Notes: generated by a model not told the origin, from the sequence alone. A DNA stretch of 64,000 nucleotides from Candidatus Omnitrophota bacterium (GCA_044225175.1 JBGAJA010000001.1:422711-486710), one strand, 5' to 3'. Positions 40,792 to 64,000 are shown, counted from the first letter of the stretch. Program-made: numbers and translations.

Positions 40792-43700
40792 ATGCGAAAT
40801 TTTCTTACTGTTAAGCTAGTCTTTATTTCAGTTTTCTTCGTCATTCCACTCGCAACAGCAGCAGACAATCCAACAACACAACCCAAATCAGAACTCGTTC
40901 ATCCTAGGGCTCAAATTGAGGCCGAAACTGTGCCTGTTAGCTCTGATCCAAAACAAATTCAGGATGTGATTTCGCAGAACAAACAGAATCTTGAGGATAA
41001 AGATACTGATAAATCTAGTGCCCGGGCAACGGAAAAGAAAACAGAAGTTGTATCTCCAGACAAAAATAATCAAAGAGACGGTGGTAATTCTCCTAGTGGC
41101 GGTCCGGGAGGCTCTGTGCCTACCAATGTTCAGAATTCTACGGTTAATGTGGAACCCTTCTCAGGCAGTGCCAATATGGCTTATCCTATTCAGGTGCCTC
41201 CAGGTAGAGGGGGAATTCAACCGAATTTAGCTTTGACGTATTCTTCCAGTTTTAGAAGCTTAGGTTTAGCGGGGATTGGTTGGACTATGGACTTGGGTTC
41301 AATCCAGCTGTCAACAAAGAAGGGTCCGCCTAAATATGATGGGACGGACATAGTTACTTTGATTGAAAATGGTTCATCACAAGATTTAGTTTATGACTCA
41401 GCAGTAGGGTTTTATCGTACGGAAGTTGAAGGAGCTTTTGCAAAGATCCAAAAGGTGGCAGACCATTGGGAGGTAACAGACAAGAAGGGTGTTAAATATT
41501 ATTTTGGTAATACCGATGATTCTCGTTCTTTTGATCCAGCCAATCAAAGTCATATCTTCCGTTGGGCATTAAATAGAGTAGAAGATCTTAATGGTGACTA
41601 TATGACAATGAGTTATCTTAAAGATCAAGGACAGTTGTATCCACAGTCGCTAGCCTATACAGGAAATAGCCAAAAATCTTTAAACACTTATGCGCAGATA
41701 TTATTCAATTATGAAGATACGGGTCTGCCATTTCATTCTTACATGGAAGGATTTTTAGTTAAAACGAGCAAGAGAATTAGCAGTGTTAATAGTTTTGTTA
41801 ATGGTATAAATCAAGTTTCGTATAATTTTATTTATCAAACTTCTACTATTACTGGTCATTCCAGACTATCTCAAATAAGTGAATGTCGCCCTCAGAATGT
41901 ATGTTTACCGCCGGTTATTTTCAATTGGCAAGATATTGAAGGGAAAATTGTTGGTTCAACAGCCACTGGAGCTGGTGGAGCACAGCGATGGTCACCGGCT
42001 GATTGGAGCTGGAGATCTTATGAAATTGCGGATGTCAATGGCGATGGTTTTCATGATTTCATTAGTTTTCAGACAGATGGTGTTTATGTGTGGAAATCAA
42101 CAGGTACGGGATTTGCTGCTGTGGAACACTGGTCATTGGTGAATTGGGATCCAAGTGCAAGAAGACATGGGATAGCTGATATTAATGGAGATGGGAAAGC
42201 AGATTTAATTAGTTTTCAAACTGACGGATTGTATGTCTGGATTTCGACCGGATCTGGTCTTTTGGGTGAACAGCGATGGTCACCAGCTGATTGGAGTTGG
42301 AGATCCTATGAAATTGCGGATGTCAATGGGGATGGTTTTCATGATTTTATCAGTTTTCAGACAGATGGTGTTTATGTGTGGAAATCAACAGGTACGGGAT
42401 TTGCTGGTGTGGAACACTGGTCATTGGTGAACTGGGATCCAAGCGCAAGAAGACATGGGATAACTGATATTAATGGAGATGGGAAAGCGGATTTGATTAG
42501 TTTTCAAACTGACGGATTGTATGTCTGGATTTCGACCGGATCTGGTCTTTTGGGTGAACAGCGATGGTCATCAGCTGATTGGAGCTGGAGATCTTATGAA
42601 ATTGCTGATATGAATGGCGACGGGTTAAGTGATTTCATCAGTTTTCAGACAGATGGTGTTTATGTGTGGAAATCAACAGGTAAGGGATTTGATGGTGTAG
42701 AACGCTGGTCATTGGTGAATTGGGACCCAAATACAAGAGAGCATGGAGTAGCAGATATAAATGGTGATGGAAAATTTGATTTACTAAGTTTTCAAAGCGA
42801 TGGACTCTATGTGTGGCTATCGACAGGAGTTAGTCTTCTTGGAGAAAAACGTTGGTCCATGGAAAACTGGAATAGAAAGCATTCGATTGCTGATATGAAT
42901 GGAGATGGAAAGGGAGATTTTATTAGTTTGCAAACAGATGGTCTTTATGTTTGGGAGAATAATAAGGGGATATCGGATTTGCTTAAAAGTACCAATAATA
43001 GTATTGGTGTTGTTAATAGCATTGATTATGAATATTCCACACAATATGAGAATTTCCTATTACCATTTTCTATTCCTGTTGTTAAGACAACATCAATGAC
43101 TATATCAAATCCAATAGGTGCGCCTAGTACTTATACGACTAATTATCATTACGCTGGCGGCAAATGGAATGCGGCAAATCGAGAGTTTCAAGGCTTTCAA
43201 GCGGTCAAGGTTATAGATACTCAAGGGAATTACAGCCAAACAACATATCTACAAGACCACTGGCTTAAAGGTCGCCCTTTAGAACAAAGTACCTATGATG
43301 CTCAAGGAGTCATCCAAAATAAGGTTGTTAATCAGTGGCAGACCCAGGACATAACAACTCATACAGCAACCGATCAAATTTCTAAGTTTATTTACTTGGG
43401 GCGAGTTGATAATTATCTTTATGATGGTGTAACAACTGCCAAACGTACGACCCAGACTTCCTCTTATAATGAAAACCCTCAATATGGCAATGTCACTCAA
43501 ACATTCAATTTGGGGGAAGTAGATTTTGTTACAGGTAATGATGTTGGAAATGACACAGTGATAACGACTTATGAATATACTTCCAATGCAAGTAATTGGC
43601 TTATAGGTCTTCCTAAATATACTTCTATCCAAGATTCTAATGGCAACACACTAGGACAATTATGGCTTTATTACGACGGAAGTGACGATAATAATGCTAT

Positions 43701-63700: not shown

Positions 63701-64000
63701 GACTACGATCGATCCCTTAGGTCGCATTACAAGTATTACCTATGATAATGACGTGCATATGTTTCCTGTGCTTACAACCAATGCGTTGGGACACGCATTC
63801 AAAAATACGTATTATGGGGTCGATGGAAACCTTCAAGATAATGGCAGGTGGGGCCAGGTAAAAAGTAAAACTGATGCCAATAATCAAACTGTTCAGACTC
63901 TATACGATGGATTTGGCCGTTCGACACTTTCTATCTTACCGTTAGATTCTTTGGCTTATCCTTCAACGGAAAAGATTTATGAACAAAAACCTTTTTATAC
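60702..64000 (+). CDS. Giant SpvB/TcB-like + beta-propeller + RHS protein, paralog 4, 5' ~1100 codons (runs off window end; not in ORF track because no stop)
   Basis: ATG 60702 (or 60708) then signal peptide MSMKNIFVGKLVFILMFFPILSANAADNQP; SpvB signature SYPIQVPPGRAGIQPNLALTYSSS; blades VDINSDGYGD, IDVDSDGHVD, VDLNADGLSD; YD repeats at end. Confidence 0.8.
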   Translation, partial: MSMKNIFVGKLVFILMFFPILSANAADNQPLQYKSELVHPRTDPKQIQEVLEKNKQTLESKAPSKKESSSETEKFVQVHSTRDRNGNGTRDDNNAPGGSVPLNVQTSTVNVEPFTGSANLSYPIQVPPGRAGIQPNLALTYSSSFRGVGLAGVGWTLDLGSIQLSTKKGVPKYDGSDIITLIENGSSEDLIYDSNAGSYRTELEGSFDRIQKVGDHWEITDKKGVKYFFGNTDDSRQYDPANVDHVFCWALNRVEDLAGNYMTISYVRDQGHIYPKTIDYTGFTSASLTLNPYAQITINYEPRSLGVSYISGFKVVSQRQISDIAVSVNGINQSKYQFTYLQSRATDRNVLHSIAQVASDGSSLPPVIFTYNDANLTWQHDTQWNALPTPLVETNPGSFVKDWGVRQVDINSDGYGDFIQNYSDCSGNFTRRIFLNNKNKGWNELPLNLANQDRAFIKGCPEENIDNSGYRLIDVDSDGHVDASSNYKSDNAGNGINYKTAQMNNGALSFISDDDWLLPDDAIITLGPSYWWNTLFEDVNGDGFLDIIIARAYVGYPLRQVVYLNRKGINPNDKGWILSSEYSSSLQSYDVRFNQGFKLVDLNADGLSDIIKITANKIAQVFMNTGHGWVEDLHSPWRSNTILQSQEGCLFVDLNADGLPDFFNGFDIYINTGYGWAAKTQSSEHVNIANGSAHLLDIDGDGLIDILTSWGSSFAVYNHPNSSAVDLLIGINNGIGAQSTIAYDSSAHYNNTFLPFTIPVVKTVTTTTENVIGRSIYTTTRYDYTGGLWNAAFREFQGFEKVKVTDKFGNYSQTTYLQDHWLRGRVASQETYDAQGLLYSKVINQWQSQDIAQNSLTQQISKFVFLAREDKFLYDGSMIPKRIAQVFTYGENPQYGDLTSTINYGEVDPVSGNDIGGDFLRTNSEYVSNTSNWLIGLPKHVYVQDINNATLGQMWFNYDGSGDYNAAPNLGRLTRKTSWLGGSQEDPAINYTYDEFGNLKTTIDPLGRITSITYDNDVHMFPVLTTNALGHAFKNTYYGVDGNLQDNGRWGQVKSKTDANNQTVQTLYDGFGRSTLSILPLDSLAYPSTEKIYEQKPFY

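Follow-up and report, generated by a model that had tools for sequence, protein, structure and literature searches.

Here, we describe a tandem array of giant genes in a 64,000-nt stretch of DNA, hereafter the window, which forms one part of an Omnitrophota contig of at least 820 kb. The array comprises four paralogues, G1 to G4, all on the + strand, each of which is predicted to encode the TcB and TcC halves of a toxin complex (Tc) cocoon as a single polypeptide. Three genes are complete: G1 (40792..47259; 2155 amino acids, aa), G2 (47439..54005; 2188 aa) and G3 (54155..60634; 2159 aa). The fourth, G4, starts at 60702/60708, is cut by the end of the window at 64000, and contributes at least 1097 aa up to that point. 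Its full-length product is represented in the database (P0003, on the same 819,945-bp NCBI contig) and measures 2159 aa from an ATG at 60651; G3 corresponds to entry P0242 of the protein collection. The spacers G1-G2, G2-G3 and G3-G4 measure 179, 149 and 67 bp. A preliminary description of this DNA had already recognised four co-directional giant paralogues, and this stands. It also gave the spacers as 68–175 bp, which was right about their shortness but not about their exact range (67–179 bp).

Pfam and NCBIfam searches recover the domain order put forward in that description, and it is common to all copies: SpvB, FG-GAP/FG-GAP_3, TcdB_toxin_midN and RHS/YD repeats, followed in G1-G3 by the Rhs core. 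SpvB (PF03534) is matched in G1-G4 with E values of 1e-19 to 5e-25 (Pfam), FG-GAP/FG-GAP_3 and TcdB_toxin_midN in 4/4 proteins, and RHS_repeat/YD_repeat likewise in all four, with E down to 1e-48 (4e-07 for RHS_repeat in the window-truncated G4). Rhs_assc_core (TIGR03696) scores 75–77 bits in G1-G3, against a cutoff of 32.5. G1, which was characterized by open reading frame (ORF) listing, Pfam/NCBIfam, AlphaFold2 (AF2) and Foldseek, can be divided into a signal peptide (aa 1–24), SpvB (122–286), a seven-bladed propeller (~395–745), TcdB_midN (697–827), an RHS shell extending to 1777, the Rhs core (1778–1862) and the cargo (1863–2155). We regard the architecture of G1-G4 as settled. Neither PAAR nor VgrG was matched in G1-G4 by Pfam/NCBIfam; the N-terminus consists instead of a signal peptide and SpvB.

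The N-termini of G1-G4 have the n/h/c organization of Sec-type signal peptides and end ATA↓AD, SNA↓TD, SYG↓AP and ANA↓AD, that of G3 differing from those of the other paralogues. Similar N-termini are present in nearly all of the 40 proteins inspected (G1-G4 and 36 family members). These signal peptides, also noted in the preliminary description, were judged by eye, with no predictor, and their presence suggests Sec export of each protein. After the signal peptide, G1-G4 and the relatives P0004, P0005, P0006 and P0008 share the motif P-x-S-E-[LM]-V-x-P-R, which is replaced by AEIKADTGSTGYIG in a sister sub-clade. These two motifs may represent clade-specific sorting or processing signals.

Predicted fold, autoprotease and cargo

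To model G1, we ran AF2 on two overlapping pieces, aa 95–860 and aa 690–1862, using alignments of 35 and 41 family members, respectively. The N-terminal model (predicted local distance difference test, pLDDT, 85; predicted template-modelling score, pTM, 0.85) is all-beta, with blade-like groups of four strands. It matches TcB proteins (TcdB2, TcdB1, YenB) in Foldseek with E ~1e-37 and template-modelling (TM) scores of 0.65–0.71, and gives weaker matches to SGS1, to seven-bladed PVL-type lectins and to SpvB-N. The second model (pLDDT 88, pTM 0.81) matches the TcdB2-TccC3 cocoon with E 1e-59 and TM scores of 0.78–0.80, versus 0.61 for Rhs shells from type VI secretion systems (T6SS) such as Tse5. 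The models superpose on TcB and on TcdB2-TccC3, and hence the single chain covers both the TcB and the TcC half of the cocoon, as had been proposed for this locus. These predictions strongly support the view that each protein forms a TcB+TcC-like RHS cocoon with a beta-propeller at its lower end. The sole low-confidence stretch in the shell model, aa 1438–1474 (~45103–45213; pLDDT ~36–56), is partly helical by prediction and may be an insertion or a surface loop.

The Rhs-associated core of G1 (46123..46377, + strand) carries R1818, D1831 and D1858, the residues of an aspartyl autoprotease. By the cleavage-motif rule of PMC7861908 and PMC9935623, the chain is predicted to be cut after H1862, at DPSGH↓SWFKK (motif PxxxxDxxG-H↓SWFKK). 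The Arg/Asp/Asp triad and PxxxxDxxG are kept in G1-G4, and the core region aligns to TccC3. Judged by its residues, the autoprotease is intact in all four proteins, and cleavage itself is predicted.

The G1 cargo delimited in this way (46378..47256, + strand; 293 aa, ~31 kDa) consists of a hydrophobic glycine-zipper segment of ~130 aa and a unique domain of ~180 aa. In G2, the core lies at 52932–53186 and the cargo at 53187–54002 (272 aa); in G3, at 59531–59785 and 59786–60631 (282 aa); and the G4 protein P0003 ends in a fourth type of cargo, of 295 aa. At 272–295 aa (29–31 kDa), all four fall within the range of TcC cargos, which comprise 201–400 aa and are under 40 kDa (PMC7861908).

All four cargos open in the same unusual manner. 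Their first ~130 residues are rich in Gly, Ala and Ser and have little charge (G 22–25%, DEKR 5–8%), and over the first 150 residues of the cargo GxxxG reaches a density of 5–12 per 100 aa, versus 0.4–0.5 in the remaining protein. Each cargo has one to three segments with a Kyte-Doolittle mean of at least 1.4 over 19 residues, with peaks of 1.45–2.08. Such a glycine-zipper start is also seen in 39 of the 78 family members with a recognisable core end. In the best PDB sequence match of the G1 core and cargo start, to the mosquito protein SGS1 (8FJP; E 1e-8), the alignment extends ~20 residues into the cargo, onto the hydrophobic helices of SGS1. SGS1 is secreted via a Sec-type route, and its predicted transmembrane helices are hidden in a Tc-like shell past the same autoprotease site (PMC9935623). 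The shell of Tse5 "functions as a chaperone" for a cargo that is an integral-membrane pore former and is delivered unaided to model membranes (PMC10684867), and the glycine zipper of Tde1 is needed for self-translocation across the target membrane (PMC10240207). From its composition and from these analogies, we infer that the glycine-zipper segment is membrane-active.

The C-terminal domains of the cargos, ~150–180 aa, are distinct in each of G1-G4, and the four cargos are mutually dissimilar except for the Gly-rich stretches, in line with the different C-termini noted in the preliminary description. Between G1 and G2, identity falls from 94–100% to 19–33% at the core/cargo junction. The cargo ends gave no Pfam match even at E up to 10. 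An exhaustive HMMER search with the G1 end (last 181 aa) against 1.84 billion representative proteins returned 0 matches, a word-indexed search with the G3 end came back empty, and comparison of the G4 cargo with the PDB yielded noise only, with no similarity to Tse5-CT.

Propellers, paralogue divergence and spacers

Alignment of the paralogues shows conserved SpvB and shell regions and two highly variable zones, the cargo and the propeller (aa ~300–770; 20–40% identity), the latter being the least conserved part after the cargo. The propeller of G1 has seven D-x-N-G-D-G-x-x-D calcium-loop motifs at an even spacing of ~48 aa, and matches seven-bladed PVL-type lectins specific for N-acetylglucosamine (GlcNAc) at the sequence level (E 1e-15). 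It contains a 288-bp tandem repeat (41982..42828, + strand; 2.9 copies, 89% matches), which encodes near-identical 96-aa double blades (94% identical to one another). The propellers of G2-G4 have six calcium-loop motifs each, irregularly spaced, and that of G2 has no sequence match in the PDB. On this evidence from sequence, the G1 propeller is of a different type from those of G2-G4 and was recently amplified.

Where G1 and G2 share the same amino acid, the third codon positions match at ~50% over most of the length, while the SpvB regions retain ~90% aa identity. This indicates old paralogues under purifying selection. DNA identity in the other pairs is 64–79%, in patches. One tract departs from this pattern: over aa ~1270–1865, the C-terminal half of the shell, G1 and G2 have 80–97% DNA identity and a synonymous-site identity of up to 0.94. 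This tract stops exactly at the cargo junction, which points to gene conversion or cassette exchange. With a near-identical half-shell and different propellers and cargos, G1 and G2 are natural chimeras that would be useful for testing which module sets the target range.

The G1-G2 spacer (47260..47438, + strand) contains two copies of the motif AAAAAA(C/T)TGG(G/T)ACACATTGAAT(A/T)A, at 47298 and 47396, and a third copy is found at 54016 in the G2-G3 spacer (54006..54154, + strand). Upstream of G3 there is also a relic of a G1/G2-type start (GCTGCCCATGCGAAAT / CCCATGCGAAAT), with an ATG at ~54071 and a stop codon soon after. As read from the sequence, the repeated motif and the relic start remain from duplication of the unit. 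Another repeated piece, AATTCCGGT.CCACA.GACGTAACC, occurs in the spacers at ~47336 and ~54092. The intergenic TGG(G/T)ACACATTGAAT was considered as a sigma-54 promoter and rejected, the GG-to-TTG spacing being two bases short by eye. A scan of 40000–41000 for sigma-70 promoters and terminators revealed none above chance.

Genomic setting and related loci

The array had been placed directly downstream of the atp operon. It does follow atpBEFHAGDC (33991–40287), with one 134-aa ORF (40291..40695, + strand) standing between atpC and G1. This ORF has a signal-peptide-like N-terminus and four Cys, matches nothing in Pfam or NCBIfam and stands as a singleton when the protein collection is clustered; it could be part of the toxin locus or independent of it. 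An association of the atp operon with toxin genes was considered on the basis of an atpF match in a Nitrospirota locus (L030), and rejected, as only one gene matched. The ATP synthase epsilon subunit (40009–40287) is only 92 aa long; of the 130 positions in the atpC profile it covers 1–82, and its helical hairpin at the C-terminus thus appears to be missing.

The source organism is a member of the Omnitrophota, as judged by the C-terminal 582 aa of its initiation factor 2 (IF-2), which has relatives at 69–90% identity; all named matches are Candidatus Omnitrophica, the top ones among them having 69–83% identity. The closest relatives of the toxins are also proteins of Omnitrophota metagenome-assembled genomes, at 38–53% identity. 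The preliminary description had taken the chromosome to be Chlamydiae-like and reduced. The IF-2 and toxin matches contradict the former, and the window gives no sign of the latter: it has genes for succinate dehydrogenase, for making haem and molybdopterin, and for an F-type ATPase. Its housekeeping-dense character is evident: serA, purA, uppS, cdsA, dxr, rseP, proS, rimP, nusA, infB, trpS, scpA and ruvB are present, together with sdhCAB, hemN/E/Y, hemA, moeA, mobA and a P-type ATPase gene. The + strand carries all 37 ORFs of at least 150 aa (ORF listing), and every 2-kb bin from 1 to 64000 has a positive GC skew; the whole 64 kb is hence one co-oriented block, presumably on the leading strand. 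Base composition gives no signal of a foreign island (GC 0.35–0.42 in the array versus 0.35–0.43 in the rest of the window). No tRNA genes, Rfam matches or mobile-element genes were found in the 64-kb window. Amid the housekeeping genes stand a lone TadA/CpaF-type secretion ATPase (9091–10362) and a lone GspG-like pseudopilin (33275–33724), neither with adjoining pilus or type II secretion system genes. A 539-aa ORF between ruvB and sdhC (18546–20165) has no NCBIfam/Pfam match and is missing from an otherwise syntenic relative, L007.

With respect to partner genes, no TcA-like gene is present in the 64-kb window, an absence that is shown for the locus. The G1-G2, G2-G3 and G3-G4 spacers contain no ORF of at least 30 aa, and the 3′ ends of the toxin genes offer no credible candidate either. 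The preliminary description was accurate in reporting neither TcA-like nor immunity-like nor mobile-element genes in the window. From the missing immunity ORFs it had turned to a non-bacterial target, such as a eukaryotic host cell. The lack of immunity genes could mean that the target is absent from the producer, or that immunity is encoded elsewhere.

To place the array in context, we collected 37 genome loci and 7 metagenome loci of relatives, most of which have one toxin gene. The family is large: at least 525 proteins scored E <=1e-10 among the scored candidates, and the 120 matches listed, most of which share the Pfam domains of G1-G4, belong to Omnitrophota, Nitrospirota, Desulfobacterota, Myxococcota, Actinomycetota and other groups. 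Some family members have additional Ig, fn3 or LamG binding domains. A metagenome scan with G4 yielded relatives at <=48% identity only, and relatives occur in groundwater and sludge metagenomes. G3 (P0242) sits in a 90% cluster represented by a 47-aa fragment and was consequently missed by homology searches; other paralogues encoded on this contig may be concealed in a similar manner.

The surroundings of these relatives bear on the likely target. No TcA-sized ORF lies within 10 kb (or the contig extent) of 15 related loci. Shortly past the toxin stop codon, 8 of 11 related loci have an ORF of 100–185 aa on the same strand. Some of these ORFs have transmembrane helices or a lipoprotein-like signal; none has a Pfam match, and they are immunity-like by position only. 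Orphan RHS C-terminal modules are found downstream of the toxin gene in L007, L023 and L037. As far as can be judged from sequence, small downstream ORFs and orphan modules are typical of inter-microbial polymorphic toxin loci. The cargos, for their part, look membrane-active, unlike eukaryote-specific enzymes, and the eukaryotic target proposed earlier finds no support.

The closest parallel in gene order is L007, in which 1–9517 is syntenic with 10374–18482 of the window (proS-rimP-nusA-infB-trpS-scpA-ruvB; 48–85% protein identity). There, one toxin gene and an orphan RHS module lie 2 kb past ruvB; the array of the window is located 22 kb further on. In at least nine Omnitrophota loci (L001, L006, L011, L012, L015, L016, L020, L022, L026), a conserved cluster precedes the toxin gene. 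It encodes histidine kinases of the 7TM-HisKA type, an HD-GYP-like GAF-HD(HD_5) protein, a regulator of the HTH-cupin kind and a protein of 545 aa that matches no family significantly. IS200/Y1-transposase-like genes (~200 aa) lie beside the toxin gene in eight loci, a set that overlaps with the kinase-cluster loci; they include L022 (8975–9550, 17200–17817) and L008 (18918–19508, 20138–20866), and also L011, L012, L015 and L016. Neither the kinase/HD-GYP/cupin cluster nor IS200/Y1 genes occur in the window.

Mode of action and relation to known systems

How might these proteins act? The interpretation we favour, and consider reasonably probable, is that they are TcA-independent cocoons which deliver membrane-active cargo to neighbouring microbes. 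The autoprotease would cut after the conserved DPxGH, and the 29–31 kDa cargo would stay inside the shell. There, the shell would act as a chaperone, shielding the ~130 hydrophobic residues of the glycine zipper as proposed by analogy with Tse5 and SGS1. Contact with a target cell, probably via the variable lectin-like propeller, would trigger cargo release, and the glycine-zipper segment would then insert in the target membrane, either to form a pore of its own or to carry the variable C-terminal domain across. No TcA syringe would be required. The array would provide several combinations of binding module and cargo per cell, for use against neighbouring microbes, whether prey or competitors. 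Omnitrophota have been reported as predators or parasites of microbes. Members of the phylum are regarded as tiny cells that live in this way, and few of their weapons are known. If this interpretation is correct, the array is a compact example of RHS cocoons working without TcA or T6SS. The delivery mechanism of Rhs toxins more generally "remains largely unknown" (PMC10684867, on Tse5).

Several points weigh against delivery of this kind. The proposed mechanism leaves the outer-membrane export step without explanation, and during Sec export in the producer, the cargo's hydrophobic segments might be retained as stop-transfer anchors. The membrane activity of these segments is argued from composition and analogy, and the searches described above assign the variable cargo ends to neither a recognisable fold nor a family. 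The lack of an immunity-like ORF between the toxin genes is unusual for inter-bacterial toxins. Finally, a TcA gene, a T6SS or an immunity block could be located elsewhere on the contig, of which 64 kb has been seen.

It is also conceivable, though not likely in our view, that each polypeptide is a complete device with which an Omnitrophota cell attacks prey or host microbes without TcA or T6SS. A swappable lectin-like propeller would pick the target surface, and the glycine zipper carried by the shell would insert into the target membrane and pull an orphan effector domain through; immunity would be dispensable, the producer lacking the receptor or target, and the array, with its shuffling of propellers and cargos, would function as a prey-range cassette system.

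A sub-variant of TcA-independent delivery to neighbouring microbes, which seems unlikely to us, holds that the genes encode ordinary inter-bacterial polymorphic toxins whose immunity genes are clustered elsewhere, for example after the last paralogue, so that their absence here would carry no special meaning. Polyimmunity loci apart from toxins are described in PMC3482391, the array runs past the end of the window, and 8 of 11 relatives have the small downstream ORF noted above. Four consecutive toxin genes separated by 67–179 bp with no cognate ORF are nevertheless unlike every related locus examined, and the comparison with candidate immunity ORFs of relatives, which match no known family, is one of position alone.

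Rather less likely is that G1-G4 are BC subunits of a classical Tc (ABC) toxin, and that a TcA pentamer, its gene located elsewhere in the genome, docks on the propeller to inject the cargo into the cell of a eukaryotic host. The fold is identical to that of TcB and TcB-TcC, the cargos have a size usual for Tc toxins, the genes are not separated by immunity ORFs, and the remainder of the genome is outside the 64 kb seen. Against this, signal peptides are present in all four proteins and throughout the family; the propeller, which is the TcA-binding element of Tc toxins (PMC9935623), is hypervariable and comes in two non-equivalent types in one array; and TcA-sized ORFs are lacking within 10 kb (or the contig extent) of 15 related loci. 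The organism is a member of the Omnitrophota, relatives occur in groundwater and sludge metagenomes, and relatives have immunity-like ORFs and orphan modules.

Slightly more improbable still, in our estimation, is a non-toxic role in surface adhesion, teneurin-like or for prey attachment, in which the hydrophobic C-terminus anchors the protein in the producer membrane and the shell and propeller serve only to bind. The segments directly after the core do score as transmembrane helices and would present themselves to SecYEG as signals to stop transfer, teneurins and SGS1 are YD shells in non-killing roles (PMC9935623), and the Ig, fn3 and LamG domains of family members are suited to binding. 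All four proteins, however, keep the cleavage motif and the last catalytic Asp, which is absent in teneurins. Moreover, the C-terminal ~150 aa are hypervariable and recombination breaks off sharply at the core, a pattern that marks toxin cassettes open to exchange, and relatives have orphan core-plus-C-terminal modules and immunity-like ORFs. An assembly artefact, in which a single gene was duplicated or collapsed, is scarcely credible: large repeated genes and the internal 288-bp repeat (41982–42828, the only stretch where assembly could matter) are hard for short-read assembly, but the paralogues are truly diverged. For most of their length they differ by 20–60% in DNA, their synonymous sites are saturated, their propellers, cargos and spacers are distinct, and every reading frame is intact over >6.4 kb.

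Irrespective of their mode of action, G1-G4 belong to the known TcdB/TcaC class of polymorphic toxins, with an Omnitrophota bacterium as their source. The preliminary description was aware of no characterised member of this arrangement in the lineage. The arrangement does have precedents. Passages of Zhang, de Souza, Anantharaman, Iyer and Aravind (2012, Biol Direct 7:18) define the combination of signal peptide, SpvB, integrin-like propeller and RHS as the delivery class "TcdB/TcaC", natural tcB-tcC fusion genes were noted by Song et al. in 2021 (PMC7861908), and among the matches listed in our search several are already named SpvB/TcaC or TcdB-midN proteins by NCBI. The architecture is accordingly not new, the class having been known since 2012 and across phyla, and the classification holds whichever mechanism applies. 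Like other members of this class, which is widespread in environmental bacteria, G1-G4 combine signal peptide, SpvB, FG-GAP propeller, RHS and a variable C-terminal toxin in one polypeptide. They differ in three respects. First, Omnitrophota is not among the phyla quoted for the class in those passages of Zhang et al. (2012). Second, at least four complete genes stand in tandem without an adjacent immunity gene, a gene that not all members of the class are known to have. Third, a long glycine-zipper segment opens each cargo, and the domains at the cargo ends fall outside all described toxin families.

The Tc BC cocoons TcdB2-TccC3 of Photorhabdus luminescens (4O9X, 6H6G) and YenB-YenC2 of Yersinia entomophaga (4IGL) have the same fold, the same R/D/D autoprotease and cargo of similar size. 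Those cocoons consist of two proteins, the crystallised fusion being artificial, whereas each of G1-G4 is a single chain that starts with a signal peptide. Characterised TcB proteins are not known to have a signal peptide. The known cocoons also need a TcA pentamer, which docks on the propeller, in contrast to the variable propellers and lack of TcA in the window; and their targets are insect or mammalian cells, attacked with enzymes that include ADP-ribosyltransferases, in contrast to the hydrophobic cargo of G1-G4. For the Tc toxin of Yersinia entomophaga, release is reported to occur by lysis dependent on a type 10 secretion system.

Other Rhs proteins each share part of this design. WapA of Bacillus subtilis is a Sec-exported, cell-wall-associated Rhs toxin that works without T6SS or TcA; it belongs to a Gram-positive host, lacks an SpvB/propeller module, and has a tRNase cargo and an adjacent immunity gene, wapI. 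T6SS-associated Rhs effectors are set apart by a PAAR/prePAAR/VgrG-binding module, which G1-G4 lack. Tse5 of Pseudomonas aeruginosa (8CP6) resembles G1-G4 in its RHS shell, hydrophobic C-terminal fragment and autoprotease, and by analogy the shells of G1-G4 may likewise act as chaperones; T6SS delivery, an N-terminal PAAR-type region in place of SpvB and propeller, a 16-kDa cargo and a cognate immunity protein set Tse5 apart. Teneurin-like, non-cleaving shells lack the last catalytic Asp (PMC9935623) that is present in G1-G4. SGS1, the mosquito salivary gland surface protein (8FJP), functions in blood feeding and pathogen transmission. Like G1-G4, it is a single chain, secreted, with a Tc-like Rhs/YD shell, propellers and an autoprotease (AP) cleavage site followed by hydrophobic segments; unlike them, it is a 3364-aa eukaryotic protein that has additional carbohydrate-binding module (CBM) and lectin domains and an inner propeller of nine blades, and that ends in Tox-SGS.

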